From: a bacterium
GTDB lineage: Bacteria; Elusimicrobiota; Elusimicrobia; UBA1565; UBA9628
Direction: 5' to 3'
NCBI GenBank assembly: GCA_021822495.1
Contig: JAKAQO010000005.1
Location: 42,548-106,547 of the forward strand
DNA: 64,000 bases
Made by a program: the position numbers and the translations under genes. Below the pieces are notes generated by a model. The model searched no databases and had not been told where the DNA came from. It saw only the letters and a program-made list of their open reading frames with translations. This document shows, one piece after another, positions 804-59,222 of this stretch. Within the stretch, counting starts at the first letter, position 1; each line of letters opens with the position of its first letter.

Positions 804-1591
804 AAAGTCTTCTTAACGCTTTGCAAGAAGGCCGCCTGGTTGAACTCCCTGAAACCGATAAAGCCAAAGCCCTTGAGTATCTCGCGCATCTTATCGAGGC
901 GGTTCCCGACTTGGGAGTGCGCCCGGAACTGGCGGAAATGATGATTGCACGGGAAAAAGCTCAAAACACGGGAATCGGCCTTGGAGTCGCTTGTCCCCAT
1001 GTGCGAACCGATGGAGAAGGAGAACTTTTGTGTTCTCTCGGTTGGAGCCCGCAAGGAATTGAATACGGCTCTTCCGATGGCAAAAAAGTTCACCTGGTCG
1101 CGATGTATTATATTCCGGTTTCTCAAAAAGGCGCCTATTTAAAGGAAGTGTCTTCTTTGGTCGCATCCGTTCGCCGGGAAGGCTGGATTCAAGAAATCGC
1201 CAATGCCGCCGATATCGCGAGCGTTCGGGAAAGGCTTTTGGACTGGGTCTCAAATTCCATTGACCAAAGCGCTCCGGATACCAAAGCGCGCATGATTCGT
1301 CTGGAAGCCAAGCAAGCGGAAGCTTTTGCCGCGTCCTCGGCCTCTCCTGCCGTCGCGGAAGGACGCCCTTTATCGGTGGCGACGGTTCTTATTTTGATCG
1401 TGGCCGATAAAGCGTTCGCCTTAAGCGAAAAAAATGATTTAGTCGCGGCTTTGGAAAGCGACCGCTCTCTCAAAGAAATGGTTCTTCAAAAACAGCCTTT
1501 TTCAAAAGCCGGGTATTCTCTCACTTTCAGATCCGTGACCCACTACGGAGAGCGCTCGCTTTACGAATATCTCGCCGTCAAACCCGTCTAA
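800..1591 (+). CDS. PTS EIIA type-2 (EIIA-Ntr/PtsN-like) domain protein with a roughly 110-aa C-terminal extension
   Basis: GIGLGVACPHVRTDG contains the phospho-His consensus of PTS_EIIA_2. The ATG at 800 overlaps the upstream TGA (ATGA coupling). The ORF tracker's ATG at 788 is the alternative start. Confidence 0.5.
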   Translation: MKSLLNALQEGRLVELPETDKAKALEYLAHLIEAVPDLGVRPELAEMMIAREKAQNTGIGLGVACPHVRTDGEGELLCSLGWSPQGIEYGSSDGKKVHLVAMYYIPVSQKGAYLKEVSSLVASVRREGWIQEIANAADIASVRERLLDWVSNSIDQSAPDTKARMIRLEAKQAEAFAASSASPAVAEGRPLSVATVLILIVADKAFALSEKNDLVAALESDRSLKEMVLQKQPFSKAGYSLTFRSVTHYGERSLYEYLAVKPV

Positions 1592-1618
1592 AAAAGGGGA
1601 CTGTCCCCTTTTTTTTTC
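1590..1618. terminator. REP palindrome (core GGGGACTGTCCCC, 1596-1608) flanked by A- and T-tracts; bidirectional intrinsic-terminator-like
   Basis: A perfect 6-bp stem GGGGAC/GTCCCC with a 1-nt loop, A-run 5' and T-run 3', sits immediately after the TAA of the EIIA gene. Confidence 0.6.
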
Positions 1619-1656
1619 TGGAAAAGTAAAAAATTGGTAAAAACGGGAAAAACCCC

Positions 1657-1685
1657 TTGACAGCGGGGCCTTCGCGCTTTACACT
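1657..1685 (+). promoter_or_regulatory. Possible sigma70-like promoter: TTGACA, 17 bp spacer, TACACT
   Basis: TTGACA lies at 1657-1662 and TACACT at 1680-1685. The ORF tracker's TTG start at 1657 is in fact this -35 hexamer. If the promoter is real, the mRNA is leaderless or nearly so (ATG at 1693). Confidence 0.25.
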
Positions 1686-1692
1686 TAAGGGT

Positions 1693-7447: not shown

Positions 7448-8589
7448 ATAAAAGAATCCAGACTTTAAAAAATTTGGGGCGGGATTCTTGTTTTCTTTGG
7501 GGAGCCAGGCAAACCGGAAAAAGCACGCTTTTGGGACGTCTCTTTCCGGATTCTCGAAAATACGATCTCCTTCTTTCCGATGAATTCGCGCGCTTGTCGA
7601 CCCGCCCTTCGCTTCTCAGGGAAGAAATTCTGGAGTCTCCGCTCCCACATAAGCCGGTCATTATTGATGAGGCGCAGAAAATTCCATCTCTTCTTGATGA
7701 GGCTCAATGGCTCATCGTCAATAAAGGCATTCAATTTATTTTTTGCGGCTCAAGCGCTAGAAAACTTAAAAGGGGCGGGGCCAATCTTTTAGGCGGACGC
7801 GCCCTTCGTTATGATCTTTTTCCTCTTGTCTATCCGGAAATTCCGGATTTCGACCTCTTGCGCGCGCTCAATAACGGCCTCATTCCAAGGCATTACCAAT
7901 CCGATCACGCCCCGGATCTTTTGCGCTCCTATGTCGGCGATTATTTGAAAGAAGAGATTTACGCTGAAGCCGCGGTTCGGCGAATTCCGGCTTTTTCGCG
8001 TTTTCTGGAAGCCTCGGCATTCAGCAACGGAGAAATAGTTAATTTTCAGAATATCGCCGCCGAATGCGGCGTCAGCGGCCCGACCGTCAAACAATATTTT
8101 CAAATTCTTGAAGACACGCTGTTGGCGAGATTTATTTCCTCATTTCGGAAAAAGCCCAAACGACGCGTGGTGCAAGCGCCGAAGTTTTATTTTTTCGATG
8201 TCGGACTCGCCAACTTCCTTCTTAATCGCGGAAAAATCTTGCCCAAAAGCGAGTCGTTTGGAAAGGCTTTCGAACATTTTATCTGCCAGGAAATCTCGGC
8301 TCACAGCCATTACTCGGGGCTCCATTACCCAATTTATTATTGGCGAACCTCCTCTCAATTCGAAGTCGATTTTATCCTGGGAGATCATCAAGTCGCCGTG
8401 GAGATTAAGGCGGCGGAGCGGGCGGAAGAGCGGCATCTAAAGGGCATTCGCGCATTTCGAGAAGAATATAAAACCCAGAAGGCGATTCTCGTCTCCTTGG
8501 ATCCAAGGCCGCGCGTCATTGATGGGGTTTCCATTCTCCCTTGGAAAGAATTTCTCTCCCGGCTTTGGGCCGAAGAAATTATTTATTAA
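7444..8589 (+). CDS. AAA+ ATPase of the AAA_14 + DUF4143 family
   Basis: Walker A is GARQTGKST and Walker B-like is IIDEAQKIP. The C-terminal region is typical of DUF4143. Confidence 0.65.
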   Translation: MYKRIQTLKNLGRDSCFLWGARQTGKSTLLGRLFPDSRKYDLLLSDEFARLSTRPSLLREEILESPLPHKPVIIDEAQKIPSLLDEAQWLIVNKGIQFIFCGSSARKLKRGGANLLGGRALRYDLFPLVYPEIPDFDLLRALNNGLIPRHYQSDHAPDLLRSYVGDYLKEEIYAEAAVRRIPAFSRFLEASAFSNGEIVNFQNIAAECGVSGPTVKQYFQILEDTLLARFISSFRKKPKRRVVQAPKFYFFDVGLANFLLNRGKILPKSESFGKAFEHFICQEISAHSHYSGLHYPIYYWRTSSQFEVDFILGDHQVAVEIKAAERAEERHLKGIRAFREEYKTQKAILVSLDPRPRVIDGVSILPWKEFLSRLWAEEIIY

Positions 8590-8608
8590 AAAAGGGACAG
8601 TCCCTTTC
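8589..8608. terminator. REP short-stem variant (GGGACAGTCCC, 8594-8604) directly after the ATPase TAA
   Basis: The A-tract/palindrome/T-tract structure is present. Confidence 0.5.
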
Positions 8609-10143: not shown

Positions 10144-10146
10144 TTA

Positions 10147-10172
10147 AAAAAAAGGGGACTGTCCCCTTTTAA
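10147..10172. terminator. REP (core GGGGACTGTCCCC, 10154-10166) between the vapC stop and the tRNA-Ser 5' end
   Basis: The A8/palindrome/T4 structure is present. Confidence 0.55.
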
Positions 10173-21792: not shown

Positions 21793-23202
21793 ATGGAAAA
21801 AGTCTTTGAGATTAGATTTGGCACCGATGGTTGGAGAGGCGTTATCGCAAGAGAATTCACCTTTCAGAATGTGCGCCGCGTTTCCCAGGCGATGGCGCAA
21901 TATATGAAGGAAGAAGCCCAAAAGGACAAAAAATCCGTGCCGCCCATTATCATTGGGTACGACCGCAGGTTCCAGTCGGAAATTTTCGCCAAGGAAGCGG
22001 CGAAAGTCTTTGCTGGCAATAAAATTAAAACCATTCTCTCTTCCGAGGTTCTGACGACTCCGGCCGTGAGTTTCTTGACTCACAAGCTCAAATCTTGGGG
22101 CATGGTCATTACCGCCAGCCATAACCCGCCGAATTACAACGGAATTAAAATCAAGCATGACGGCCGCGGGGCGATGGAAACCATTACCCGGTCGGTCGAA
22201 GAATACATCGACAAGGATTCTCCAGCTTATGGAACTGACTTTGAAGAGAAATCTTTTAAAAAAGAATATTTGGCCTATCTTAAATCCCGCGTTAATTTAG
22301 CCAAGATAAAAAAAATTAAAAAGCCCATCGTCATTGATTATATGCACGGAGCGGCAGGGGGGCTTCTGGAAGAGATTTTATCTGGAAACAAAATCATATC
22401 CCTCCGCAGCCAAAGAGACCCGCTTTTTGGCGGGCAAGCCCCGGAACCGGTTGAAAGCCATCTCAAAGAATTGTCGGAAACTGTCGTTTCCCAAAAAGCT
22501 GTTTTAGGGATCGCCGTGGACGGAGACGCGGACCGCTTCGCTCTCGTTGACGACAAGGGAAAATATTTGACTCCGTGTCAGATATTTCCGCTGATCATTC
22601 GCTATTTAGTGGAGAAAAAAAAGATTAAGGGAAAAATCGTTCAATCGGTCTCCATGGGATATTTGGCCGAGCGCATGGCCAAAGATTACGGCGTTGAGTT
22701 TGAGGAATTGCCGGTCGGCTTTAAGCATGTCGCGGAAGCTCTAGCCGTCGGCGGCGCCGCGATCGGAGGCGAGGAATCCGGGGGATATTCCTGGACCAAG
22801 ACCATCGCGGAAAGAGACGGACTTTTGACCGCTCTCCTTTTTCTTGAGATGATCGCAACCGAAAACAAATCCATTTCTCAAATGTGGAATGAAATTTCGG
22901 CGAAACACGGAAAATCTTTCTTTAAACGGGTTGATTTTCACCTTCACAAACCCGTGGCGGACAAAAATCTTTTTGTTTCCCGCTTAATTAAAAAATTGCC
23001 AAAAAAGATATTAGGGTCTGAAATTAAGAACTTAATCCAGATTGACGGGCTTAAGATTTCCCTGGATGGGGGGCACTGGCTTCTCATGCGCCCTTCTGGG
23101 ACGGAATCCTTAATGCGGGTTTACGCGGAATCAGATTCTGCCGAGCGCACGCAATCTCTCTTGGAATTGGCCAAAAAATGGGTCGCCCCCAATCTGAACT
23201 AA
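21793..23202 (+). CDS. Phosphoglucomutase/phosphomannomutase (alpha-D-phosphohexomutase)
   Basis: GTDGWRG, the active-site Ser loop TASHNPPNYNGIK, the metal site DGDADR and GEESGG are all present. Confidence 0.8.
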   Translation: MEKVFEIRFGTDGWRGVIAREFTFQNVRRVSQAMAQYMKEEAQKDKKSVPPIIIGYDRRFQSEIFAKEAAKVFAGNKIKTILSSEVLTTPAVSFLTHKLKSWGMVITASHNPPNYNGIKIKHDGRGAMETITRSVEEYIDKDSPAYGTDFEEKSFKKEYLAYLKSRVNLAKIKKIKKPIVIDYMHGAAGGLLEEILSGNKIISLRSQRDPLFGGQAPEPVESHLKELSETVVSQKAVLGIAVDGDADRFALVDDKGKYLTPCQIFPLIIRYLVEKKKIKGKIVQSVSMGYLAERMAKDYGVEFEELPVGFKHVAEALAVGGAAIGGEESGGYSWTKTIAERDGLLTALLFLEMIATENKSISQMWNEISAKHGKSFFKRVDFHLHKPVADKNLFVSRLIKKLPKKILGSEIKNLIQIDGLKISLDGGHWLLMRPSGTESLMRVYAESDSAERTQSLLELAKKWVAPNLN

Positions 23203-23252
23203 AAAAGGGGACAGTCCCTTTTTTTGAGGGAAAAGGGGACTGTCCCCTTTTG
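23201..23252. repeat. REP inverted doublet (REPIN-like); cores 23207-23218 and 23235-23247
   Basis: GGGGACAGTCCC, an 18-bp spacer, then GGGGACTGTCCCC. The doublet follows the TAA of the phosphohexomutase. Confidence 0.6.
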
Positions 23253-25522: not shown

Positions 25523-26284
25523 GTGAACAAAACAATCAAGAATGCCCCAGAAGCCTTATCCGGCCTTTTTGATGGGGCCACGATCATGATCGGCGGGTTT
25601 GGTTTATGCGGGCTTCCAGAAAAAATGCTGGAAGAAATTCAAAACATCAGCGCTAAAAATCTCACCATCATTTCCAACAACGCGGGAACCGACAACTACG
25701 GAATTGGGCTTCTCATCAAAAAAGGCCGGGTCAAAAAAATGATCATGTCTTACGGCGGAGAATGCAAGGCTTTTGAGGAAGCGGCTCTCAAGGGCTTAAT
25801 TGAAGTTGAGTGGACGCCGCAAGGGACCTTGGCCGAGAGAATCCGCGCGGCGGGGGCCGGAATCGGCGGTTTTTTTACGCCTACGGGATACGGCACGGTC
25901 GTCGCCGAAAGAAAAGAGACCCGCAACATTGACGGAAAAAATTATGTCTTTGAAAAACCGCTCTTTGCTGATTTCGCCTTGATTAAAGCCTGGAAGGGGG
26001 ATACGCTCGGAAATCTCATTTACCGTAAAACCGCGCGCAACTTTAATCAGGCCATGGCCACCGCCGCGAAAACGGTCATCGCGGAAGTTGAGACCTTGGT
26101 CAAACCCGGCGATCTTGAACCCGACGCCGTTCACACGCCGGGAATTTATGTTGATAAGATTTTCCAAGGCGCAAGCTACTTAAAACCCATTGAGAAACTA
26201 ACCGTCCAAGAGCCCTCCGAAAAAGGGGACAGTCCCCTTTTTCATGAAAATGGAGGAAAAAGGGGACTGTCCCCTTTTCTATAA
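25523..26284 (+). CDS. 3-oxoacid CoA-transferase subunit A (ScoA/AtoD-like), with a repeat-encoded C-terminal extension
   Basis: GTG start. MIGGFGLCGLPE is characteristic. The ORF has no stop before 26282 and reads in frame through both REPs (tail ..KGDSPLFHENGGKRGLSPFL). Confidence 0.7.
   Translation: MNKTIKNAPEALSGLFDGATIMIGGFGLCGLPEKMLEEIQNISAKNLTIISNNAGTDNYGIGLLIKKGRVKKMIMSYGGECKAFEEAALKGLIEVEWTPQGTLAERIRAAGAGIGGFFTPTGYGTVVAERKETRNIDGKNYVFEKPLFADFALIKAWKGDTLGNLIYRKTARNFNQAMATAAKTVIAEVETLVKPGDLEPDAVHTPGIYVDKIFQGASYLKPIEKLTVQEPSEKGDSPLFHENGGKRGLSPFL
26221..26280. repeat. REP inverted doublet; cores 26225-26237 and 26262-26274
   Basis: GGGGACAGTCCCC, a 24-bp spacer, then GGGGACTGTCCCC. The doublet lies inside the 3' end of the scoA reading frame. 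Confidence 0.6.
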
Positions 26285-31249: not shown

Positions 31250-31255
31250 TGATTA

Positions 31256-34524: not shown

Positions 34525-37500
34525 ATGCGAAAAAAGAACATTTGTGAACTCGTCTCCGAAGGCGCCCAACAAAAACGTTCCCAAAAATTAGGAAGATGGG
34601 GACTCTCCCTAACTCTCCTCATTTTTCTCGCCGCCCAAGCAAAAGCACAGGTGCAAAATATTATCTCGACGCCGACCTATCCAGCCAACGGCTCTTATTT
34701 TAATCTGCAAAACCAAACGCCGAACTTTAACTGGTTCGGCCCTTCCACAACGACAATTCAATTAGCGACTTCTCCTGTTTACAATCTTCAGGTCGGCACT
34801 GACCCCACCTTTGCCGCCGGCCTTGTTATTAACGTGCAAATTGCCGCCGTGATCCCAAGCACCGGCCTCCCAAACGCTTATGGCTCCTACCTGTCTGGAA
34901 CTTCTCTAACCAATAACACCACTTATTATTGGCGCGTCTATGCGACAGATAGCTCCGGAGGCGAAAGTATGTCTTGGAGCACATTTAGCTTTGTGACTGA
35001 TTTTGCCCCTGATTCTAACCTTTCAGCATCTTACTCGGGAACGTTGAACTCTTTAGGACAGACTACTCCAGAAAACCAGTTTGTTTCTTTATCCAATGGC
35101 GCGACATCTCAATTATCCGTTTCGGCTTCATTCAGTGGGATTGCGGTTTCAAGCTCCGCCGTACCGTTAACCGGGGATAGCGCTAGTTTTACACAAGGAA
35201 CCAGCGGCTACGGTGTCCTCTATTCGACCAATTCCGGCACGACCTGGGAGGATTACTCCTCATTAGGCATAAATGTTCCAGCAGCTGGCGGTGGAGCTAC
35301 GATCTGGAATTTAGCTGTTTTTAACGGTTTTCTCTACGCTGGTCTAAGCAACGGTTCTATCATTCACACAAATAATGGAACGAGTTGGAATACGGATTAT
35401 ACTGGTTCAAATTATGGAATTGGTGGTTTTACCATATATAAAAACACTCTTTACGCCTCAAACCACGACGGTAGTAATGCGTATATGGTCTCAATTACCA
35501 ACGCTGGAACGGTCAACCGAGCCACTGTATTCAACTCTGGAGCGGGTGTGAGTAAACCAGTCGTTCTTAATAATACTCTTTTCGTCGAAGCTTCTTATAC
35601 TGGAATCCCCGCAGGAGATCCTGGAGCTGGCAACGCTGGAGGCGGAATTTTTGCGTCACAAGACGGCATCCATTGGGTTCAAACGTCCGGTGTTGGCGTA
35701 TGTAGCGACAACTTTGACCAGCTTTTTACATTTAATGGAGAGCTTTATGCAAATGTACAATCAGGGGGTTTTGGATGCAGCGGGTTATTCGTAAGCCCAG
35801 ATGGGGTCAATTGGACAACAATTGACAATCAAAGCGTTCCAGGAACTGTTAATACCGCCACAGTTTTTAATGGAAAACTTTATATTGGAGTAAACAATGG
35901 AGGCTCAAACCCGCTCCTCTATTCATCCACTAATGGGCAAAGCTGGTCAGCGGACAATGGAACACTGACCCAACCTTCCTTGGGGGGCAGTGTCAACGAT
36001 CTTAATGTGGTCAATGGCAAGCTTTACGCCGGTATTTCCACGACCACTGCCAGAATATATGTGACCGAGGATGGAAACAACTGGTTTCCATCAATTTCAG
36101 GCGGCACAGGACAAACAGGAGCAGGAGCGCCCGTTTATTTTAATGGGAATTTTTATGCCGCCGCTGGTCCCGATATCATCACCATCTCGCCCTTTAGCGC
36201 CTCTCTACCTGGTTCTAATGGAGAGCCTTCTGGAACGCTTTCTGCCGTCAGTCCGCAACTTGCCGCTTCAACCACGACAACTACTTGCGGCGGAGTGTCT
36301 CCTTGCAACGCAACCAACCAAGTCATATTTACCGCAAGCGATATGGCAGGAAACACCCTCATGTCTGGTCCTTATGCTATTTTAGTTGACACCGAGGTCG
36401 GGGTCGCCATTTCAACGCCCAGCTATCCGGGAACGCCGACAGTGGGACAGTCTCCTCCGGGGACAGTCCCTTACGTGAACGTTCAGCCCAATTTCGACTG
36501 GATTGGGCCTTCAACCGGGGTCGCTTCGGCTTTGCAGCAGCCCGCCAATTTTTTTCTTGAGGTCTCATCCAACGATCCAACTTTTTCGCCTTCTAATATT
36601 GTGATTAGCACCTCGACTCCGGTCGTCGTTTATTCCACCAATGTCCCCACCGCCAACGGAGCCTACCTTTCGCCTTACGTGCTGGGAAATAACACCACTT
36701 ACTATTGGCGCATCTATATAAAGGATAATCTGGGCGGAACCAGCCCCACATCCCCAACCTATAAATTTATCACGGATTTTGCTCAACCCGCAGTGTCCAC
36801 CTCCAGCTTTCAGAGCATCAATGCCCAAAGCTCGCTCTTACCGGAAAATCAGTTTAACGATCTCGCTTCGGGCGTCACCGCCCAAATTACGGTCCAAGAT
36901 ACTAATTCAGGCCTTGCCGTTTCGACCAGCGCGCTTTCTTTCGCGGGGGATGGACATGATGACCCTCCAATAACCTCGGGGTTTGGAATTATCTATTCCA
37001 CAAATGCCGGGTTCTCATGGATAGTGCAGTCCACCTCCGCTGAAGCCAACAACGGCAGCGCGGTGGGAACGGGAATTCGCTCATTAGCTGTATTTAATGG
37101 GGATATCTACGCTGGGGATTACAGCGGTCATGTCTATTACAGCGCCGACGGCAACACCTGGAGCGCGGGAACTCCCGGGACAAACCCCATTCAATCTTTA
37201 AGCGTCTTCAATGGAATCTTATACGCCGGAGACGGCGGAGGATATATTTACTCAAGTTCAAACGGCAGCACTTGGAGTACAACTAATGGCGGCTCTGCCG
37301 TTGGGGCAGGCATACTCGCAATGACCGTCTTTAACGGACAACTTTATGCCGGAGATAATTTTGCCCGCGTTTTTGTCATGGATGCAAGTGGAAATTGGCA
37401 TAACGTAGACGGCGGAACTGTTGGAACGAGTTCCATTGAATCCTTGGCCGCGTTCAACGGCCAACTCTATGCCGGAGATTATTATGGAAATATCTATGCC

Positions 37501-40500: not shown

Positions 40501-42159
40501 TCATACCCCTTTATCTCGGGAACCGGCATCATTCCCTTTTCGCCGGGAATCACCATCAGCACTATTCCCATCCGGCTTCTGGTCGCGGTAGACGTTTCAA
40601 CCGGAGCCAATTATCTCAACAATGATTTTGGAATCGGAATTTCAACTCCCGCCAATATCTCAATCAACGCGCCCAATTTTGTCGTTCCCTCAACCACCAC
40701 ATTCCCGGCCGATTCAAGTATTATTCCCATTACGAAAGCCCCGGATGTCATGAGCGTTTTCCCGACTTCCTTGATGGATGTCAACGGCGTCGTTCAAGGC
40801 CAAAACGCGCCGGCGGCGAAACTGAGTTTAGTCACCCAGCACAGTTCCGTGACCTGGACGACGATTTCCGTTCAAAGAAGCGGCACCCTGCCGGATTCGG
40901 GAGTTGATTCCGTCAATATTTATGACGACGTAGATCAAAATGGTGTTCTTGACTCTTCGGATGTCCTAGTGGGAAGCGCGCCCTTTGTTTCCGGAACAGC
41001 CAATATTTCTTTCTCCACCGCGCAACTGGTCAGCCCCGCAGGAGCGGATTATCTCATTACGCTTCAAATTGACCCTAACGCTACTCCGGGAGACACCATT
41101 GGAATTTCCTTGTCCGGCGTGTCCAACTTTACCGTGTTGCCCCCGGACACCGTCTCGGGTTCAAGCCTTCCGTTTAACTCGGCCTTAGGGCCGGTTCTCA
41201 ATATTAAAACTCCCACTCAACCCATCGTCACTTTCCCGAACGGAGATTATTCCAGCTCCTTTGATTCGGTCGGCTTTATCTGGTATTCAACGGTCGCCGT
41301 CGGTTCCATTTCCAGCGCGGCCTATGCCGTGGGAACGACTCCCGGGGGAACCGATATCGCGCCGTATACCGCCATTCCTTTTGCGGCGTCTAGTTTCACC
41401 GCGACCAATCTTCTCCTCTCTAACGGGGCCACTTATTATGTCTCGGTGGAAGCCACCTCTAACTACGGCTTTACCAGCCCGCCGGGAATCAGCCCCGGGT
41501 TTTTGGTTGATTTAATCACCCCAGGGTCGCCGACCAATCTCAGCGCCAATGTCGGCGTAAGCTCGATTTATCTGACCTGGGATCCGGGAACAGTCGGGCC
41601 CTCAGGCGCTTCGGGATATCTTCTCGAATATTCAGACGTCGAACATCCGACCTGGTATAACGCCAAGACCGGAGCGGTCACCGCCCTGGCCGCCGGCCCC
41701 CATGGAACTCTTTCGGCCAATTTCATTCCCTCTTCGCCGTTTTTGTTCAACAATCCGCCGCAAGGAACCCTTCTTTTCCGCGTTAGTTTAGTCAACGGCG
41801 CGGGGGTTCAAAGCGCCCCGTCCAATTCGATCAGGGTTCTCTTTGGAACGCAGTCAAACGCTGGAATATCGAACGTCTCATCCTATCCCAATCCCTTTAA
41901 CTCAAATTCCGGAGTCGCGACTATCGTCTACACCTTGGATACTCCGGGGAATGTCTCCATTCAAATCTACAGCGTCTTTGGGAGTCTCGTCAAAAGCCTC
42001 TCTTATTCTGGTGGAAGCGTGGGGGGGCAAGCCGGCGTCAATACCGTGACCTGGGACGGAACCGACTCAGGCGGACGCAAAGTCTCCAAGGGCATCTACA
42101 TCGCCGTCCTCAAAGCCAATGGTATGAGCGTCCAATACAAAATCGGGGTCAATCACTGA
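34525..42159 (+). CDS. Giant (2544 aa) secreted repeat-rich surface protein with Asp-box/BNR-like beta-propeller repeats, FN3/Ig-like modules and a T9SS-type C-terminal sorting domain
   Basis: A signal peptide is present. There are three super-repeats of about 560 aa, each with TTYYWR(V/I), S-x-(D/N)-G-x-(S/T)-W propeller repeats and the Cys motif CGG.SPC.AT.Q..FT.SD. Five repeats of about 125 aa follow (..IYRD.NGTG..). An FN3 domain is next (IYLTWDPG), and the protein ends in a C-terminal domain of type PNPFN..ATI.Y.L....V.I.IY...G.LV..L..G..WDG.D..G..V..GIY. Confidence 0.75.
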   Translation: MRKKNICELVSEGAQQKRSQKLGRWGLSLTLLIFLAAQAKAQVQNIISTPTYPANGSYFNLQNQTPNFNWFGPSTTTIQLATSPVYNLQVGTDPTFAAGLVINVQIAAVIPSTGLPNAYGSYLSGTSLTNNTTYYWRVYATDSSGGESMSWSTFSFVTDFAPDSNLSASYSGTLNSLGQTTPENQFVSLSNGATSQLSVSASFSGIAVSSSAVPLTGDSASFTQGTSGYGVLYSTNSGTTWEDYSSLGINVPAAGGGATIWNLAVFNGFLYAGLSNGSIIHTNNGTSWNTDYTGSNYGIGGFTIYKNTLYASNHDGSNAYMVSITNAGTVNRATVFNSGAGVSKPVVLNNTLFVEASYTGIPAGDPGAGNAGGGIFASQDGIHWVQTSGVGVCSDNFDQLFTFNGELYANVQSGGFGCSGLFVSPDGVNWTTIDNQSVPGTVNTATVFNGKLYIGVNNGGSNPLLYSSTNGQSWSADNGTLTQPSLGGSVNDLNVVNGKLYAGISTTTARIYVTEDGNNWFPSISGGTGQTGAGAPVYFNGNFYAAAGPDIITISPFSASLPGSNGEPSGTLSAVSPQLAASTTTTTCGGVSPCNATNQVIFTASDMAGNTLMSGPYAILVDTEVGVAISTPSYPGTPTVGQSPPGTVPYVNVQPNFDWIGPSTGVASALQQPANFFLEVSSNDPTFSPSNIVISTSTPVVVYSTNVPTANGAYLSPYVLGNNTTYYWRIYIKDNLGGTSPTSPTYKFITDFAQPAVSTSSFQSINAQSSLLPENQFNDLASGVTAQITVQDTNSGLAVSTSALSFAGDGHDDPPITSGFGIIYSTNAGFSWIVQSTSAEANNGSAVGTGIRSLAVFNGDIYAGDYSGHVYYSADGNTWSAGTPGTNPIQSLSVFNGILYAGDGGGYIYSSSNGSTWSTTNGGSAVGAGILAMTVFNGQLYAGDNFARVFVMDASGNWHNVDGGTVGTSSIESLAAFNGQLYAGDYYGNIYASTNGSSWNSLGTIGNSGSLIETMAVFNGKLYAGDSNGFIHFSANGASWTTSNNGSAVGSGITALTVFNGQLYAVDALGYVHISADGVHWNSIKVATQGTGLAGFNGNLYVGDYYGAVYRAIPLAATLSGSDGTTASQTLSANNLNLVQSTTTATCGGTSPCSATDQIIFTASDLAGNVVESGPYAILVDTTVAPAISTPSYPLNGAYLNFNPNFNWTGPSTSIVSGLLAPSYYQLEVSSNDPTFATVFVNISTPIPPVNTGLSTDNGAYISTYTFANLTTYYWRVRTIDGFGGTSPWSTTFSFTTDFSSPTAVGGSFATLNSLGGLVPENQVTVLQSGVTAQINITDIGSGFSAFNSSNYSVRYSTNAGLSWISEPFSALAFTGSIGQTSTQTFTAYGLNLAASTNSYVCGGISPCGATNQVEFTFSDQALNFSTAGPFAVIVDTHSTDVLVSTANVAPLGIPQNTSVAFIRLTLNSLTGTAPWTGLTVQRLGSGTDADVQNVAIYRDNAGTGIFSPSDTQITQNAVFSGGIVNLTMTNPESITTSTKTYFLVYTAAPGALVGDGLAAEITSTASFTFSNGYQMSSAQTTIYPLISSTATVVDGPNYLYITPASQAPNDAPPGTANIEMLSLKAYTNTGTSTLSKIVFHLLGTGASNDISSISIYRDSNGTGVYAPNDSLVTSGSDSFFNGVSTVAFTTTIASETVTTSPIYYFVLISLSPNAPLGDTLGISISTTSDVELIDVLDTTTFTTSPAASSLLTIEYINTLNVQGVNQIPSSLLQGQQYAILKASFTVSTGETSFNGITITRIGLGHDSDVSAVRVWQDPAPPETFNPATFLQLSSGTFVNGNAQLNFPLQTLSAGTTYVYYVTYNISPTALQGDTLGGRITSNLDISDTNPGTTIVGNFSINSATSPVVPTTAGLFVSAQNVAPSDLLQGATNQQMLNLTMDTTQYSVLLGALTFNSLGTASSSDISRVEVYQDLVGNGILNTSTDPLLSAVSYPFISGTGIIPFSPGITISTIPIRLLVAVDVSTGANYLNNDFGIGISTPANISINAPNFVVPSTTTFPADSSIIPITKAPDVMSVFPTSLMDVNGVVQGQNAPAAKLSLVTQHSSVTWTTISVQRSGTLPDSGVDSVNIYDDVDQNGVLDSSDVLVGSAPFVSGTANISFSTAQLVSPAGADYLITLQIDPNATPGDTIGISLSGVSNFTVLPPDTVSGSSLPFNSALGPVLNIKTPTQPIVTFPNGDYSSSFDSVGFIWYSTVAVGSISSAAYAVGTTPGGTDIAPYTAIPFAASSFTATNLLLSNGATYYVSVEATSNYGFTSPPGISPGFLVDLITPGSPTNLSANVGVSSIYLTWDPGTVGPSGASGYLLEYSDVEHPTWYNAKTGAVTALAAGPHGTLSANFIPSSPFLFNNPPQGTLLFRVSLVNGAGVQSAPSNSIRVLFGTQSNAGISNVSSYPNPFNSNSGVATIVYTLDTPGNVSIQIYSVFGSLVKSLSYSGGSVGGQAGVNTVTWDGTDSGGRKVSKGIYIAVLKANGMSVQYKIGVNH

Positions 42160-42827
42160 TATGAAAAAAAGGGGACAGTCCCCTTTTTGGGGGAAATCTC
42201 GAAAAAGGGGACTGTCCCCTTTTTTGGCCGCCCGATGCGGCGCTCAAGCCCCATTTCCTCTCTTATCTCTTGCTCACGCTCACCACCATACACTATTTCT
42301 TTATAAAAATAAGCCCTCTCCTGGGCAGAATTTCCAAGAGATAAATAACCTGGGCTTTCCTCCAGAAAAGGGGACTGTCCCCTTTTTCCTGTATAGAATC
42401 CATAGCTGGACCAAGAGTAATCTTCCGGTTTTTTCACGATGGCTGCGCGAACGGGGTTTAACTCAATATAACGGCCACAGAAAAGCAGGCTTCTCTCCGT
42501 TGGCAACAAGACGCTTTTATAACGCCCCTGCCAGAGATGACCCACCAGAGAATTTTTTCCTCGGAAATAATCGGAATATCCCTGCAAAAGTCTTTGCATC
42601 GCCTTACCCAGGTCTTCCGCTTTTTGAACTTGAGCTAAGAAATGAACATGATTTGGCATTAGGACATAATGATACAGGTGAAAAGGATTTTTTTTCTTCG
42701 CCCATTTCAGAAGAGCTAAGAATTTTTCATAATCTAAATCTTCCTGAAATATCTTCTGTCGGTTATTCCCACGAGCCATCAGATGATAAAACATTCCCTC
42801 AAGCACATTTCTCCTCTGTCTTGGCAT
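42153..42827 (-). CDS. IS200/IS605-family Y1 tyrosine transposase of the REP-associated type (RAYT)
   Basis: The HuH motif is MPNHVHFL and the catalytic Tyr context is GHLWQGRYKS. One REP (42370-42382) is inserted in frame, giving GKRGQSPF. The ORF has no stop until it has read through the downstream REP doublet (..KKGTVPFFEISPKKGTVPFF). Confidence 0.7.
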   Translation of the reverse strand: MPRQRRNVLEGMFYHLMARGNNRQKIFQEDLDYEKFLALLKWAKKKNPFHLYHYVLMPNHVHFLAQVQKAEDLGKAMQRLLQGYSDYFRGKNSLVGHLWQGRYKSVLLPTERSLLFCGRYIELNPVRAAIVKKPEDYSWSSYGFYTGKRGQSPFLEESPGYLSLGNSAQERAYFYKEIVYGGEREQEIREEMGLERRIGRPKKGTVPFFEISPKKGTVPFFSYQ

Positions 42828-42960
42828 ATCACCCCTCCTTTCCGCCTAGATTCTCTGCTATATTTCATACGGCAGAAACACAAAAAAAGTTCCCTCAAAA
42901 AAAGGGACAGTCCCTTTCTCGGTTAAAATTCCTAAAAAAAGGGACTGTCCCTTTTTTCTT
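42161..42960. mobile_element. RAYT-REPIN unit: RAYT gene flanked by inverted REP doublets (42165-42235 and 42897-42960)
   Basis: Downstream doublet cores are at 42171-42183 and 42207-42219. Upstream doublet cores are at 42904-42914 and 42941-42951. This is the classical genomic context of REP-associated tyrosine transposases. Confidence 0.6.
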
Positions 42961-44485
42961 ATTTCTACTTCTCTCTTCCATATCGGCTTCCGCAGCCAGC
43001 AGCTTCTATGCCGGTTCTCCTAACGAAATTTTCCAGTTCGGAGCTGACGCCAGGGCCATGGGAATGGGAAACGCTTATACCGCAATCGCTGGCGGCGCGT
43101 CTTCTCTTTACTACAACCCCGCAGGACTCGGCCTTCTCAATGGTCCCGATATCAGCGCCATGCAGGCCAGTCTCATTGGCGGCGCGGCTTATGAAAATTT
43201 ATCCTATGCCCAGAATTTTTCAAAGATGCCTGGAGCTTGGGGAGTTGAAGCCCTCAACATGGGCGTTGGAGGGGCCGAGCAAAGGGACTCTCAAAATAAT
43301 TTGACCGGAAGTTTTGGCTTTCAAGAAACCGGATATGGAGCGGGATTTGGATTGCGAAATGTCGTCATTCCAGGTTTATCATTGGGAGGATCTTTCCAAG
43401 GGCTCAGCCGAAGCTTAGGTGGAAGTTCTTCCGACATGCTCTATGGAGCCAATCTCGGCGCCCAATACGGCCCTTTTTTTGATAATATGGTGACCGCCGG
43501 ACTCGTTCTCCAAAACGGCTTTAACGGAGCGCAAAACACCTTTGACCGGTTGCCTACGGTTCTACGCGCGGGCCTGGCCGTCACTCCCATCGACAATCTT
43601 CTTATCTCCGCGGACTATGGAAACGACGGAGATTATGGAATAGGCGCGGAATATAGAATATGGATGTTCGCCCTGCGAGCCGGATATATGCCGGAAGGCC
43701 TCACCTTTGGCGCTGGAATCTATTATAAATCAATGGAAGCCGATGTCGCGATGGTCAATGATCCGATTTTTGGAATGGGGGAGCGGTTTTCGATCAACTA
43801 CCGATTCGCGGGGAAGAAAAAAGAAAAGCCTCTCCAGACTTATACCAACAGTTATCTTGACGCCGCGAAAAAAGAACTTAATATTCGCAATTACCTCAGC
43901 GCGCAACTGGCTCTTGAAGAAGCGATGGGGATTGATCCAACCCAGATTCCCCAAATATGGAAGGAAAAACTCAAACTTCTTCAAGCGTTCAATCAATATT
44001 TAGATCTCAAGAATCGACCGGATGAGGTTAAGACTCTTCTCGCTAATGATCCGGCGGCGATACTCGCCCAAAAATCGATTTTTTCTTATTTAGAGGGGCG
44101 TGACGGCGATGCGATGATTTGGGCCTCCGTGGCCGCTGGAACGGCTCATAAATCCATGCCCTATATTGACTTTATCAAGACAATGGCTTATCTTACGAGT
44201 ATGAAGGTTTCGGAAGGAGATTTGTTGCCGCCGGCCGAATATGTTTCCAAAAAAATGGAGACTGCTCTTCAGGACATTTATCAAAAACGCTTCGCGAATT
44301 CAGTCAGAGATTGCCAACAGGCCATTGTGGTCAACCCGAAAGAATCTTCCGCCTGGACTCGTCTTGGCAGCGCTTATTTTGCCTGGGGACACAAACAAGA
44401 AGCCAAAAAGGCTTATCAAAAAGCCCTGGAGCTCGATCCCAAGGATGAAAATCTTAAGAAATTCATGGAGATCTATATCAAATGA
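42956..44485 (+). CDS. Outer-membrane beta-barrel protein with a PorV/PorQ-like N-terminal motif and C-terminal TPR; 5' start unresolved
   Basis: The signal-peptide-like segment KKGTVPFFLFLLLSSISASAASS is partly encoded by a REP. It is followed by FGADARAMGMGNAYTAIAGGASSLYYNPAGLG and Gly-rich beta-strands, with TPR at the C-terminus. No ATG/GTG/TTG start exists between the REP doublet and this segment. The frame is open back to 42161, antisense to the RAYT gene. Confidence 0.45.
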   Translation, partial: FLFLLLSSISASAASSFYAGSPNEIFQFGADARAMGMGNAYTAIAGGASSLYYNPAGLGLLNGPDISAMQASLIGGAAYENLSYAQNFSKMPGAWGVEALNMGVGGAEQRDSQNNLTGSFGFQETGYGAGFGLRNVVIPGLSLGGSFQGLSRSLGGSSSDMLYGANLGAQYGPFFDNMVTAGLVLQNGFNGAQNTFDRLPTVLRAGLAVTPIDNLLISADYGNDGDYGIGAEYRIWMFALRAGYMPEGLTFGAGIYYKSMEADVAMVNDPIFGMGERFSINYRFAGKKKEKPLQTYTNSYLDAAKKELNIRNYLSAQLALEEAMGIDPTQIPQIWKEKLKLLQAFNQYLDLKNRPDEVKTLLANDPAAILAQKSIFSYLEGRDGDAMIWASVAAGTAHKSMPYIDFIKTMAYLTSMKVSEGDLLPPAEYVSKKMETALQDIYQKRFANSVRDCQQAIVVNPKESSAWTRLGSAYFAWGHKQEAKKAYQKALELDPKDENLKKFMEIYIK

Positions 44486-44552
44486 AAAAAAGGGGACAGT
44501 CCCCTTTTGGGGACATTTCTTTAAAAAAGGGGACAGTCCCCTTTTTTCTTTG
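44483..44552. repeat. REP doublet in direct orientation (cores 44492-44504 and 44529-44541, both GGGGACAGTCCCC)
   Basis: Both central bases are A, whereas the other doublets are inverted (A...T). The doublet follows the stop of the outer-membrane protein gene. Confidence 0.55.
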
Positions 44553-47075: not shown

Positions 47076-47085
47076 AAGAAGAAAA

Positions 47086-47210
47086 AAAAGGGGACAGTCC
47101 CCTTTTCCTCATAAACTTAAGGTCGGGGACAGTGCCGTCCCTAAGAATTATGAAGAAGAGGCACAGTCCCCTTTTTTTCTTCGTCATTTCTTCATGATTA
47201 AATGCCGCTT
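47086..47210. repeat. Composite 120-bp REP-containing leader element (copy 2), near-identical to 34373-34497
   Basis: About 115 bp are near-identical to copy 1, including the variant core GGGGACAGTGCCGTCCC (47125-47141). Confidence 0.6.
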
Positions 47211-48949: not shown

Positions 48950-48975
48950 TAAAAAAGGGACAGTCCCCTTTTTCT
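48950..48975. repeat. REP (core GGGACAGTCCCC, 48957-48968) between motA and motB
   Basis: An intra-operon copy, so perhaps an attenuator rather than a full terminator. Confidence 0.5.
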
Positions 48976-53433: not shown

Positions 53434-53439
53434 TAGGAA

Positions 53440-53462
53440 AAAGGGGACAGTCCCCTTTTTCA
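53440..53462. terminator. REP (core 53443-53455)
   Basis: It lies between the DUF3307 gene stop and the thiolase RBS. Confidence 0.55.
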
Positions 53463-56904: not shown

Positions 56905-56925
56905 ATAGTTAGGGACAGTCCCTAA
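56905..56925. repeat. REP variant with an extended 8-bp stem, TTAGGGAC-A-GTCCCTAA (56910-56926)
   Basis: The core GGGACAGTCCC lies upstream of the tRNA-Val 5' end and the next gene. Confidence 0.45.
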
Positions 56926-56933
56926 TTCTCATT

Positions 56934-57971
56934 ATGAAGCTTTTAAGTTTTGAAATTTCAACGCCATTAGGACCTCAGGAGCGCCTCGGGGTTTTATGGG
57001 GCGTTCATATCGTCGATCTCAACCTCGCCGCCCGTCTTAGATTTAAAGCGGAAGAGAAATCCAATCCTGAAAGACTGGCCAATGCCTTCGTTCCGCCGGA
57101 AATCATCGCTTTTTTAGAGATGGGAAATGAATCTTTCTTGGCCGCAAAGGAAACGCTTAAATTTTTGGAGACTCAATTTTCCCAAAAAACGCCTTTGGGG
57201 ACGAAAGGCGAAAAGATATTTTATTTAGAGACGGAAATCCGTTATCTTCCGCCCGTTCCTCATCCCGGCGCGCTAAGAGATTTTTTCGCTTTTGAAGATC
57301 ACGCCCTTAAGGCCTCCGAGCGCCGCAACGAGCCCCTGAGCCAATCTTGGTATGATCAACCCATTTATTATAAAGGAAATCACCGGGAAATTTATGGGCA
57401 TAGGGCGATGATTCCCTGGCCTAGTTATACCCGGCGTTTTGATTTTGAACTTGAAATCGCCTGCATCATTAAAAAGAAGGGCCGCGACATTCCGGTTGAA
57501 AAAGCGGGCGACTATATCGCCGGATATTCGATTTTAAACGATTTTTCCGCCCGCGATATTCAAAAAAACGAGATGGTTTGCCGCATGGGCCCCGCCAAGG
57601 GCAAAGATTTCGCGACCGGCCTCGGGCCTTATCTGGTGACGCCTGATGAAATCAAAAACCAAAATAATCTCCCGATGTCTGTTTCCATCAACGGGGAAAA
57701 ATGGAGCGAGGGAAATTCCGGCGGCCGGTATTGGAGTTTTGAGACCATGATTTCCCACATCTCCCAGGAAGAAACGATTTATCCCGGAGACATTCTGGGA
57801 TCGGGCACCTATTACCGCGGTTGCGGGCTGGATTTAGACCGTTGGGTCAAAGCTGGCGACATCATCGAACTTGAAGTCGAAGGCCTTGGAAAACTCATCA
57901 ACACCGTTGGAACGCCCAAAGAGCAAAAACAGCTAAAATACCCGAGAAAAGAACATGCCCTTGATCGTTAA
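56934..57971 (+). CDS. Fumarylacetoacetate hydrolase (FAH) family protein
   Basis: The FAH-fold C-terminal region: GYSILNDFSARDIQ...MGPAKGKDF...PGDILGSGT. Confidence 0.6.
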   Translation: MKLLSFEISTPLGPQERLGVLWGVHIVDLNLAARLRFKAEEKSNPERLANAFVPPEIIAFLEMGNESFLAAKETLKFLETQFSQKTPLGTKGEKIFYLETEIRYLPPVPHPGALRDFFAFEDHALKASERRNEPLSQSWYDQPIYYKGNHREIYGHRAMIPWPSYTRRFDFELEIACIIKKKGRDIPVEKAGDYIAGYSILNDFSARDIQKNEMVCRMGPAKGKDFATGLGPYLVTPDEIKNQNNLPMSVSINGEKWSEGNSGGRYWSFETMISHISQEETIYPGDILGSGTYYRGCGLDLDRWVKAGDIIELEVEGLGKLINTVGTPKEQKQLKYPRKEHALDR

Positions 57972-59163
57972 GCGCGGAGAAGTTCCCAAAACCCCGCACA
58001 CCGAATTTTACGGGCGGAAAAATATTTTATCCCTTGAAGAGATTCATGGAACCTATGGTTTTTCCGGGGCCTTTTCAAGAAAAATGCACTTGCGCCGCTA
58101 TCCTACGGTTCAAACGGAAAGCCCAAAACTTTTGCCTTTAAGTCTCACAAGTCCGCTTCTTCAAAACGCCCCGCTCAGCCCTTATCATCTCCTGACCGGT
58201 AAAATTCCCTATCAAGAAACTTTCGAGTGTTCAAGGCATTGTCTTCTCAAAGGTCTCACCGCATCAATTTCAGTTTCCAAACCCCTCCTTTCATCCCCAG
58301 AAAACGAGTTTTTTAGGAACGCGGAAAGACATGAATGTCTTTTCGTCCAGGAGGGAAACGGGATTTTAGCCAGCGAATACGGAGAACTTAAATTTAAAGA
58401 AAGACAATATCTCGTGATTCCCAAGGGAACGACCTATCAATTCCGCCTTTCAACAAAGCGCGCTTTTTTTCTCATCATCGAATCTCTTTACCCCATTCGG
58501 TTCGCGCCGCACTACCTCAATTCCGACGGTCAGGCGACCTTGATGTCTCCGGTCATTGAAACTGAAATCGGAATTCCCGATTTTAAAGAGCCTTTAGATA
58601 TCTCGGGGAAATTTAACATTCTTTCCAAACACAACGATGGGCAAGTCACAAAAATCGTCTTGGGCCATCATCCCTTTGATCTCATCGGCTGGGAAGGGGC
58701 GCTTTACCCCTTTAGCTTTGACTCATCCGATCATCATTCCATCGCCCGGGAAATTCACACCGCGCCTCCAGTTCGGCAAACCTTTCAGGCTGGAAACGCG
58801 CCGCATAGCGGTTTTTCCATCTGCACCTTCCGAGCTCAAATTGAGGGTTGGAATCCCAAGGACGTGCCTGCGCCCTACGCGCATTATAACGTCGATTCCG
58901 ATGAAATGATGTTTTTTTCAAACACGACTTACGAAGCCAGAAAAGGAATTGTTGAACCGGGATCCATTACCTTTCATCCGGCCGGGCTTCCGCACAGCCC
59001 GCATGGAGACGCCGCCAAAAAATCGTTTAGCTCCCGCGGAAAGCTTTCGAATTATTTAGCCGTCATGTTGGATACTTTTTTTGAATCTCTTCAGCCTACC
59101 AAAGAAGCCCTCAAATACCACGACCCCCAATATCCGCTCAGTTGGGCTAGGGCGCAAATATGA
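57955..59163 (+). CDS. Cupin-type dioxygenase, homogentisate 1,2-dioxygenase-like
   Basis: The size, the C-terminal ITFHPAGLPHSPHG, and the adjacent FAH gene suggest the homogentisate branch of aromatic amino-acid catabolism. The N-terminus is atypical. Confidence 0.35.
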   Translation: MPLIVKRGEVPKTPHTEFYGRKNILSLEEIHGTYGFSGAFSRKMHLRRYPTVQTESPKLLPLSLTSPLLQNAPLSPYHLLTGKIPYQETFECSRHCLLKGLTASISVSKPLLSSPENEFFRNAERHECLFVQEGNGILASEYGELKFKERQYLVIPKGTTYQFRLSTKRAFFLIIESLYPIRFAPHYLNSDGQATLMSPVIETEIGIPDFKEPLDISGKFNILSKHNDGQVTKIVLGHHPFDLIGWEGALYPFSFDSSDHHSIAREIHTAPPVRQTFQAGNAPHSGFSICTFRAQIEGWNPKDVPAPYAHYNVDSDEMMFFSNTTYEARKGIVEPGSITFHPAGLPHSPHGDAAKKSFSSRGKLSNYLAVMLDTFFESLQPTKEALKYHDPQYPLSWARAQI

Positions 59164-59169
59164 AAACAG

Positions 59170-59222
59170 AAAAAGGGGACAGTCCCCTTTTTAGCAAAAA
59201 AAGGGGACTGTCCCCTTTTTTT
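59170..59222. repeat. REP inverted doublet; cores 59175-59187 and 59203-59215
   Basis: The doublet lies between the dioxygenase stop and the GTG start of the flavin reductase. Confidence 0.6.

Follow-up and report, generated by a model that had tools for sequence, protein, structure and literature searches.

The window analysed here is a 64-kb stretch of an Elusimicrobiota contig (GenBank JAKAQO010000005.1, assembly GCA_021822495.1, positions 42,548 to 106,547 of the forward strand) which carries a dense family of short palindromes and, on its minus strand at 42153-42827, a gene encoding a REP-associated tyrosine transposase (RAYT; REP, repetitive extragenic palindrome). The palindromes share a 13-nt core, GGGGACWGTCCCC (that is, GGGGAC(A/T)GTCCCC), which was counted as an exact pattern and with up to two mismatches, the expectation being taken from dinucleotide-preserving shuffles: 18 exact matches were found against 0.02 expected, and 34 sites with at most two mismatches against 1.21 expected, in agreement with the over-representation claimed in an earlier note made from the same sequence. 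We consider it likely that these repeats constitute a REP family, many of its members being arranged as inverted doublets that resemble REPINs (REP doublets forming hairpins), and that this family is tied to the RAYT. The transposase gene, which is the decisive piece, was not seen by the author of the earlier note; it was found by listing the open reading frames (ORFs) around the densest repeat cluster, which is organised as follows (L198 and L209 are loci of relatives, whose RAYTs are 70% and 64% identical to that of the window).

42153..42827, minus strand: RAYT gene, 224 aa, recognised by Pfam, NCBIfam, PDB, fold and alignment.
42164..42225: 3'-terminal REP doublet of the RAYT gene; cores 42171-42183 (central A) and 42207-42219 (central T), 11 nt past the stop codon of the giant gene; a single REP in L198, with a 36-bp difference.
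42366..42387: REP copy within the RAYT ORF; core 42370-42382, encoding GKRGQSPFL; present at the matching place in L198 and L209.
42896..42958: 5' flanking REP doublet of the RAYT gene; cores 42903-42915 and 42940-42952, with the variant AGGGACWGTCCCT; conserved in L198 and L209.

The product of this ORF matches the Pfam family Y1_Tnp (E = 2.9e-14) and scores 82.4 bits against the NCBIfam model NF047646 (REP_Tyr_transpos), for which the cut-off is 80. Its sole sequence match in the PDB, at about 17% identity, is 4ER8, the structure of E. coli TnpA-REP bound to a REP hairpin, and the same entry is the best fold match (E = 3.5e-7), followed by IS608 and ISDra2 TnpA structures, of an AlphaFold model built with 21 homologues (pLDDT 82, pTM 0.76). 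The protein displays the HUH motif N59-H60-V-H62, the pair W99-Q100, the catalytic-tyrosine helix Y120-IELNP (residues 120-125), which aligns with the corresponding helix DYIYINPV of 4ER8, and a basic tail RIGRPKKG. In the alignment of homologues (A1), N59, H60, H62, W99, Y120, I121, E122, N124 and P125 are invariant and Q100 is present in at least 90% of the sequences. A search of Pfam, including one with the tail alone at E <= 10, detected Y1_Tnp only and none of the C-terminal helix-turn-helix (HTH) domains Bac_DnaA_C, HTH_23 and HTH_28; the model predicts short helices between residues 159 and 191 and a disordered stretch for the last ~35 residues, which include the basic tail.

By its motifs NHVH, WQ and YIELNP and by its flanks, the protein appears to belong to the Y1/HUH transposases of TnpA-Y1 subclass 2.1, which corresponds to RAYT Group 1 and to the "TIRYT" class. 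Subclass 2.1 was equated with Bertels' RAYT Group 1 by Quentin et al. (2018), who characterised it by the motifs NHVH, W[EQ] and YIELNP and by a median length of 238 aa (PMC6006769), and many TIRYTs were reported by Di Nocera et al. (2013) to be flanked by GGGGWSAS inverted repeats, some of which are self-complementary, dimeric or overlapping gene ends (PMC3733652). The window RAYT resembles these proteins in its motifs and in its length of 224 aa, its repeat overlaps the 3' end of the gene, and GGGGACAG is an exact instance of the GGGGWSAS consensus. It differs in that its repeat amounts to no more than a perfect palindrome of 13 nt and the adjoining A/T tracts, in that the copies are very dense (TIRtrons and TIR families were described as coexisting in few genomes, the latter being "moderately abundant"; PMC3733652) and in that no C-terminal HTH was detected. 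The clade of this RAYT may be a short-tailed branch of subclass 2.1.

Repeat copies flank the gene on both sides. The 5' doublet (42903, 42940) lies 70 nt upstream, and the 3' doublet (42171, 42207) is placed at the gene end in such a way that the last ~25 codons run through it, AAA AAG GGG ACA GTC CCC TTT TTT encoding the KKGTVPFF of RPKKGTVPFF. The copy inside the ORF at 42370 adds no length relative to homologues, GKRGQSPFL aligning with YGK-KDGIV. Between the window and L198, the dN/dS of the RAYT is 0.17, that of MotA being 0.027, and the gene is under purifying selection. It is single-copy in the 77 kb of readable sequence of the source genome and vertically inherited, and the repeats vary between relatives. 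An autonomous IS200/IS605 insertion sequence was considered and rejected: there is one RAYT in 77 kb, no tnpB adjoins it, and it occupies a single syntenic site in the sisters (64-70% protein identity). The dedicated binding protein that the earlier note had supposed behind the repeat density may well be this RAYT, given its place in the middle of the region and its flanking copies.

The 29 cores at 18 loci first reported were all recovered, a few of the coordinates being 1 nt off (8593, 42903, 42940, 48956 and 56911), and they make up seven doublets, two three-core composites and nine singles. Five more sites with at most two mismatches (34598, 36443, 36459, 41946 and 55213) are coding and lack the A/T tracts; among them, 36443 and 36459 form an in-frame REP-derived insertion. 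When the 25 best copies are oriented with A as the central base, the repeat is delimited as a unit of ~23 nt composed of A5-8, GGGGACAGTCCCC and T4-6, with A at positions -1 to -4 in 23-25 of the 25 copies and T at +1 to +4 in 23-24 of them; copies 31238 (AATAAT/ATTATT) and 56911 (AGTT/AATT) have different, self-complementary flanks. The seven doublets are inverted, as the earlier note had claimed, with a core-to-core gap of 15-24 nt (and not 18-25), and the succession of central A then T, also claimed, is seen in six of them (units inverted tail to tail; binomial p = 0.0013 against an expectation of 1/4), 44492/44529 being the sole A,A doublet. Inverted pairs at a fixed short distance are thus present, as in REPINs and bacterial interspersed mosaic elements. 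The half-site AAGGGGAC occurs 41 times in the window, 40 times within full palindromes and once outside.

The family is mostly extragenic: 24 of the 29 cores are intergenic or at ORF ends, and the other five are the copy within the RAYT ORF and the doublets read through by the RAYT and CoA-transferase subunit A ORFs. According to a gene map which is crude, the window is 94% coding and ~6% intergenic, and the 29 cores are spread over 58 kb, where REP units fill about a sixth (~18%) of the intergenic DNA. The remaining copies are the following.

1590..1617: single REP; core 1596-1608; the A-tract overlaps the TAA of ORF 788-1591; 11-bp stem and triloop, DNA -9.9 and RNA -13 kcal/mol.
8588..8607: single REP, variant AGGGACAGTCCCT; core 8593-8605; between convergent genes.
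10146..10170: single REP; core 10154-10166; between the stop of a PIN-domain gene (10178, minus strand) and a tRNA-Ser gene (10057-10143, minus strand).
23201..23251: REP doublet; cores 23207-23219 and 23235-23247; between phosphomannomutase-like and NTP-transferase genes.
26220..26278: REP doublet; cores 26225-26237 and 26262-26274; at the junction of CoA-transferase subunits A and B, lengthening the subunit A ORF.
28503..28565: REP doublet; cores 28510-28522 and 28547-28559; between two minus-strand genes.
31230..31258: REP variant with outer stem AATAAT/ATTATT; core 31238-31250; between divergent genes.
32232..32256: single REP; core 32238-32250; 4 nt from the stops of both convergent genes.
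34378..34473: composite; outer REP 34386-34398, degenerate inverted partner 34455-34467 and third degenerate core 34421-34433; between divergent genes.
36438..36473, plus strand: in-frame 36-nt insertion in a gene of 2544 aa; degenerate cores 36443-36455 and 36459-36471; adds GTPTVGQSPPGTVP; absent from the L198 orthologue.
44485..44547: REP doublet (A,A); cores 44492-44504 and 44529-44541; between a TPR gene and a HisKA-FliG gene.
47082..47178: second composite; cores 47090-47102, 47125-47137 and 47159-47171; absent from L198.
48951..48973: single REP; core 48956-48968; between motA- and motB-like genes.
53438..53460: single REP; core 53443-53455; 9 nt past a TAG stop.
56907..56927: REP variant AGGGACAGTCCCT with AGTT/AATT flanks; core 56911-56923; between a tRNA-Val gene and the next gene.
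59170..59222: REP doublet; cores 59175-59187 and 59203-59215; between tandem plus-strand genes.

A core lies within 14 nt of a stop codon at 12 of the 18 loci, and at four of them (1596, 8593, 23207 and 32238) the TAA stop merges into the A-tract. The siting after stop codons described in the earlier note is therefore borne out for most loci; it does not cover the three loci between divergent genes (31238, 34386 and 42903/42940), the several loci within likely operons, such as scoA/scoB (CoA-transferase subunits A and B) and motA/motB, nor the ORF-internal copies. Because intergenic DNA represents only ~6% of the window, a "target preference" for stop codons or TAA is not separable from an effect of position. 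No copies are found at 10.2-23.2 kb, in a polysaccharide cluster of lower G+C, nor past 59.2 kb of the window. This REP-free stretch of 13 kb (10166-23200; G+C 0.46-0.475) contains mostly polysaccharide-synthesis genes (flippase, glycosyltransferases and methyltransferases); its gene content is unlike that of the relative L206, and it may be a recently exchanged island.

By folding, a single unit forms an 11-bp stem (A:T outer pairs and GGGGA/TCCCC inner pairs) closed by a CWG triloop, the folding energy being -9.9 kcal/mol for DNA and -13 to -16 kcal/mol for RNA. A doublet gives a single long hairpin (DNA -26, RNA -41 kcal/mol) and a composite an imperfect hairpin of ~90 nt, the outer arms of which are the two REPs. 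The combination of a G/C stem-loop and a U-tract is found on both strands for most copies, with the exception of 31238, 56911 and the L209 lineage, so that the description of each copy as a terminator-like hairpin on either strand is structurally correct, as far as shape is concerned. The A and T tracts give each copy the form of an intrinsic terminator, bidirectional but weak, and give a doublet that of a strong one. A simple terminator scan gave hit numbers at the shuffle expectation except at the REPs, which are thus the only excess in the window.

All named best matches of the MetK of the window are from Elusimicrobiota, at 84% identity or less, which makes the source an uncultivated member of this phylum. 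In both L198 and L209 the RAYT occupies the syntenic position that it has in the window, its neighbours being the giant surface-protein gene and a TPR gene, and the layout of a 5' doublet, an ORF-internal copy and a 3' copy is shared. Around this common frame, the occupancy of sites differs. L198 has one REP only in place of the doublet at 42164-42225 (36-bp difference), lacks the composite at 47082-47178 through an ~80-bp indel with conserved flanks, and shows 129 bp of unrelated sequence where the window has the doublet 44485-44547, a position that in L209 holds a doublet. The doublet at 23201-23251 corresponds to a clean ~50-bp indel directly after TAA: neither L206 nor L207 carries it, and the intergenic gap of both is far smaller (L206 reads TAATTCTTCCATG). 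The doublet of the window between scoA and scoB is matched by one core in L207, by a decayed remnant in L206 and by no core in L208. In the giant gene, the insertion at 36438-36473 turns the YPSGYVNVQ of L198 into YPGTPTVGQSPPGTVPYVNVQ. The number of cores around metK varies likewise, from 12 in 21 kb in the window to six (mostly at other sites), one and none per ~20 kb in relatives whose MetK is 94%, 89% and 84% identical, respectively, the last having 65% G+C. The core looked for in related genomes is thus found there, and the recent mobilisation implied by the earlier note is upheld by the clean presence or absence of copies between close relatives. The two composites (34378-34473 and 47082-47175) are 100% identical over ~95 nt, including the non-palindromic spacer, which can therefore be explained by copying only.

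Three further observations concern these sites. The 129-bp sequence of L198 (8197-8346) is A/G-rich and then C/T-rich (GAAAGAAACGGAAAG...CTTTCCGTTTCTT) and resembles a different long imperfect palindrome. In L206 (11222-12601; 94% MetK identity), CoA-transferase subunits A and B form one ORF of 459 aa with an apparent decayed REP core, AGAGGCGGTCTTA, at the junction. Lastly, a sequence of ~25 nt, CTTCGTYATTTCTTCRTGATT (~90% identical), follows both composites (34474-34498 and 47179-47203). L198 has this sequence too at the orthologous site (about 12437-12460, reverse complement), where the composite is missing; judging from this arrangement, it may serve the two downstream genes as a common promoter or operator, or else be a site preferred for insertion.

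The flank consensus is proper to each lineage: A5/T5 in the window and L198, and GAAAT/ATTTC in L209, its RAYT-internal copy included. Single orthologous copies with AATT/AATT also occur, for example at the L198 site orthologous to 48956. The outer stems thus covary between lineages and between copies (A5/T5, AAAT/ATTT, AATT/AATT, AATAAT/ATTATT), which means that the pairing is conserved and the T-run is not; on this covariation, the hairpin structure appears to be what is selected. The RAYT-internal copy (window 42366-42387; L198 10446; L209 3565) has been kept in the three lineages, and its flanks follow the REP consensus of each lineage even at the cost of changes in the protein (GKRGQSPFL, GEKGQSPFL and GNRDSPHFI), a pattern that suggests homogenisation with the family or an autoregulatory role.

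Beyond these relatives, a protein search returned 2800 RAYT homologues at E <= 1e-5, the nearest named ones coming from Elusimicrobia and Omnitrophota, and a metagenome scan with alignment gave 80 RAYT loci at 35-50% identity. The exact core is present in none of these 80 loci; related heads, GGGGTCAG and GGGGACAG, flank most of them instead. An inverted sequence is common to both sides of the gene in 44 of the 73 testable loci (7 of the 80 having too little flank), most of which carry the head GGGG[AT]CAG, as in AAATGGGGTCAGAATTATTTT, TGGGGACAGACCCCATTTTTC and CAATGGGGTCAGACTCGATTGAT, and some the sister palindrome GGGGTCAGACCCC. Non-palindromic versions at related RAYT loci, such as GGGGACAGACCCC and GGGGTCAGAATT, still give hairpins or inverted repeats. 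Most homologues end in RGRPKK, which is AT-hook-like, and a subgroup with a GGDRKS tail has ATCAAT before the head instead. Of the 29 homologues with a G-R/W-P tail, 27 have an A-rich stretch ahead of the GGGG head, as do 11 of 30 others (Fisher p = 6e-6, ignoring phylogeny); all tail classes are A/T-rich before the head, and the A-tract of the 3' repeat is formed by the KK codons. A link between the AT-hook-like tail and the A-rich flank would be only a hypothesis.

The core was also sought elsewhere with the 19-mer AAAGGGGACWGTCCCCTTT (one genome per species), which gave at least 114 stretches (eight-kb loci) with a median G+C of 62%. The matches listed include Polyangiales/Myxococcales, Coriobacteriia and other Actinomycetota, Acidobacteriota, Aminicenantes, Planctomycetota, Nitrospirota, Bacteroidales, Clostridia, Omnitrophota and several Proteobacteria, and among them some genomes have repeated dispersed matches (CP070713 at 0.21, 0.72, 1.30, 1.39 and 3.10 Mb; CP070825 at 0.06, 0.16, 1.04 and 3.55 Mb). 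In these genomes the core tips longer, lineage-specific hairpins, such as atgcaacaaaGGGGACTGTCCCCtttgttgcat in Collinsella, and the doublets are mostly A then T. Four of the 114 listed loci also encode a RAYT homologue (31-39% identity), about 0.2 being expected by chance according to our own estimate, which supposes one gene copy per genome and a genome size of a few Mb; they belong to metagenome-assembled genomes (MAGs) of one gammaproteobacterium, two Nitrospirota and one Planctomycetota, and in all four a core either overlaps the end of the coding stretch that was matched or lies 30-80 bp beyond it, on one side or on both. The occurrence of the 13-nt core beside distant RAYT homologues in other phyla, and at hairpin tips in many more, suggests a recognition element that is unusually conserved in the clade. 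A different arrangement is seen in an Omnitrophota MAG (L015), in which a stretch of 600 bp holds three tandem pairs of the core in direct orientation, their period being 20 nt (GGGGACAGTCCCCaaaaggcGGGGACAGTCCCC; 4309-4341, 4503-4535 and 4831-4863), unlike the inverted doublets of the window.

As to how the repeats would move, we infer by analogy with E. coli TnpA-REP and IS608 TnpA, as described in two reports (PMC3479197, PMC8266576), that this RAYT moves them and by what chemistry. The RAYT would bind the folded REP hairpin on transiently single-stranded DNA, cut beside it by means of Tyr120 and of a metal bound by His60 and His62, and the strands would be rejoined elsewhere without target duplication. 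Singles, doublets and the 95-nt composite would in this manner be copied or lost in intergenic DNA and occasionally in frame within genes, the RAYT gene itself presumably staying in place and being inherited vertically.

Several points weigh against a REP family moved by this RAYT. In the literature, the class is seen as poorly productive: subclass 2.1 was scored "REP: no" (PMC6006769) and Group 1 is the most IS-like RAYT group (PMC5581495); flanking 16-mers number ~12 per replicon for Group 1 versus 57 and 140 for Groups 2 and 3 (PMC5581495). The oriented alignment of 25 copies contains no GTAG or CGTC tag, the flanks being unconserved beyond the A/T tracts, and the family thus falls in neither the GTAG nor the CGTC superfamily of Di Nocera et al. 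(2013). On its 144.7-kb contig, no copy occurs in the 13 kb adjoining the window (5.9 kb upstream and 7.4 kb downstream), and since 77 kb were read in all, a genome-wide family is not established for the source organism. The indel boundaries reveal no target-site duplication or defined target, none being expected for Y1 transposition, and do not define cleavage sites, and the indels between species could also be explained by deletion or by recombination between palindromes. Finally, in a rough neighbour-joining tree, the RAYTs flanked by the exact core are not monophyletic, homologues with other heads being interspersed between them, so that the palindrome was either retained many times or arose repeatedly from a GGGGWCAG head, and the core may be constrained by something besides one enzyme lineage. 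The simple scheme of one RAYT subclade with one core is not supported for the same reason.

It remains to be asked what else could have produced such a family. We think it quite improbable that the repeats are primarily bidirectional intrinsic terminators of the host, kept near-identical by selection or gene conversion, with the RAYT incidental or exploiting them. They do resemble such terminators in their succession of A-tract, G/C stem-loop and T-tract, with a G/C stem and T-tract on both strands, in their RNA energies of -13 to -16 kcal/mol (to -41 for doublets) and in their frequent location after stops (12 of the 18 loci within 14 nt) and between convergent genes; the REPs are also the sole terminator-like excess, and E. 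coli REPs are reported to attenuate transcription or read-through and to stabilise the upstream mRNA (bioRxiv 10.64898/2026.03.23.713779). Ordinary terminators, however, share no invariant loop or stem across loci and phyla, are not placed between divergent genes or inside ORFs and have no link to a transposase. Here, neither the loop nor the inner stem varies, a constancy for which termination has no need, and the G/C stem measures no more than 4-5 bp; copies are placed between divergent genes, in likely operons (scoA/scoB, motA/motB), in the RAYT ORF and in frame in the giant gene; the L209 flanks AAAT/ATTT offer only three T and one orthologous copy of L198 has AATT/AATT; and the association with a RAYT recurs in other phyla. 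The divergent, operon-internal and coding placements, together with the invariant loop and the L209 flanks, make termination secondary at most, and it is probably a side effect or secondary use rather than the origin of the family. Uptake signals of the Neisseria (DNA uptake sequence) or Haemophilus (uptake signal sequence) type often sit as inverted pairs in terminators, and a perfect palindrome with a single central base would suit the duplex site of a dimeric nucleoid or regulatory protein; the motif is moreover found in many phyla, and copies 31238 and 56911 are just upstream of gene starts. Nevertheless, either of these functions is highly improbable: the half-site stands alone in one case of 41, which is unlike uptake sequences, the outer flanks covary so as to keep the pairing, as for a hairpin rather than a duplex site, the non-palindromic versions at related RAYT loci still form hairpins or inverted repeats, and the gene linked to the repeats is a RAYT and not a competence or regulator gene. 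A DNA-uptake sequence proper was rejected, 40 of the 41 half-sites being inside full palindromes.

The activity of the family is a separate matter, for the repeats could have spread in the past and the RAYT have since been domesticated, the present differences being due to deletion and decay only. The RAYT is indeed single-copy in the window, syntenic in three lineages (window, L198 and L209) and under purifying selection, a pattern that fits the domesticated RAYTs of Bertels et al. (PMC5581495), and degenerate copies exist (AGGGAC..GTCCCT, and the decayed core at the L206 scoA/scoB junction). We nonetheless regard such a fossil family as unlikely: 18 cores are identical at all 13 positions and the composites over ~95 nt; there are apparent gains in the window lineage, the relatives having short intact junctions (23201-23251 and the 36-nt in-frame insertion); and the flank consensus differs between sister lineages at all copies, the RAYT-internal one included, which requires recent turnover or homogenisation. 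A REP family mobilised by its RAYT thus remains the explanation that we favour.

A broader proposal joins these elements: a widespread Group 1 / subclass 2.1 clade would use the near-invariant apical hairpin GGGGAC(A/T)GTCCCC as recognition element in many phyla (Elusimicrobiota, Nitrospirota, Planctomycetota and Proteobacteria, and probably Myxococcota, Actinomycetota, Acidobacteriota and Bacteroidota), the element would here be a mobile bidirectional terminator cassette supplying most intrinsic terminators of the region, and the disordered, AT-hook-like RGRPKK tail would read the A:T outer stem. Taken as a whole, this combination is speculative and rather doubtful.

With respect to known systems, the window shares with the REPIN-RAYT systems of Pseudomonas and Enterobacteria (Groups 2 and 3) a single-copy, vertically inherited Y1 transposase, flanking extragenic palindromes, an occupancy that differs between relatives, inverted doublets as the likely replicative unit, copies mostly downstream of genes and a protein whose closest match is 4ER8. 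It differs from them by the absence of a GTAG/CGTC tag, by a far shorter doublet spacing (15-24 nt) and by its RAYT subclass, and the perfect palindrome makes the window hairpin near-identical on both strands, unlike that of Groups 2 and 3. The in-frame palindromic insertion in coding sequence at 36438-36473 and the copy in the RAYT ORF recall Rickettsia palindromic elements, which are 100-150 bp long and CGTC-tagged, whereas the window inserts are of 24-36 nt and most copies are extragenic.

Some other genes of the window were noted as well. Three tRNA genes are all on the minus strand, tRNA-Ser(CGA) at 10057-10143, tRNA-Thr(TGT) at 12728-12799 and tRNA-Val(CAC) at 56808-56879, with REP copies 10 nt upstream of tRNA-Ser and 31 nt from tRNA-Val. 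Two AAA_14/DUF4143 ATPase genes (7444-8589, plus strand; 8650-9828, minus strand) converge on a REP variant, and beside this pair a PIN-domain gene and a small upstream ORF resemble a toxin-antitoxin pair. Downstream of a TPR Ser/Thr kinase gene, two adjacent paralogues (4102-5697 and 5719-7302) encode Gly/Ala/Ser-rich proteins with hydrophobic C-terminal regions and no Pfam match. A cluster (44560-47075, 48170-49673) conserved in the sister genome contains a gene in which a histidine kinase with HisKA and HATPase_c is joined to FliF_C/FliG_M/FliG_C-like domains; motA- and motB-like genes, a HEAT-repeat gene and a CHASE2-guanylate cyclase gene come after it.

To our knowledge, work on REPIN-RAYT systems has been confined almost entirely to Gammaproteobacteria, and an association with REPs is accepted for RAYT Groups 2 and 3 only. 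No paper in the literature searched brings Elusimicrobiota together with REP, RAYT or TIRYT, and a full-text search of the literature for the core sequence returned only unrelated eukaryotic or viral primer or site matches. The features that stand out are a density unusually high for the class, the minimal perfect palindrome that mimics a bidirectional terminator, a host phylum for which the literature searched offered nothing of the kind and a core that is identical across phyla. The window therefore offers a clean case, in uncultivated Elusimicrobiota, of a Group 1 / subclass 2.1 enzyme amid dense minimal palindromes with a GGGGWSAS head, and three related lineages allow the gain, loss and concerted change of the repeats to be traced. 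For annotation, such hairpins will be called intrinsic terminators, and they extend or interrupt ORFs, as in the scoA tail, the RAYT tail and the giant gene. If it is true that these REPs terminate transcription, the family would be a mobile source of terminators.

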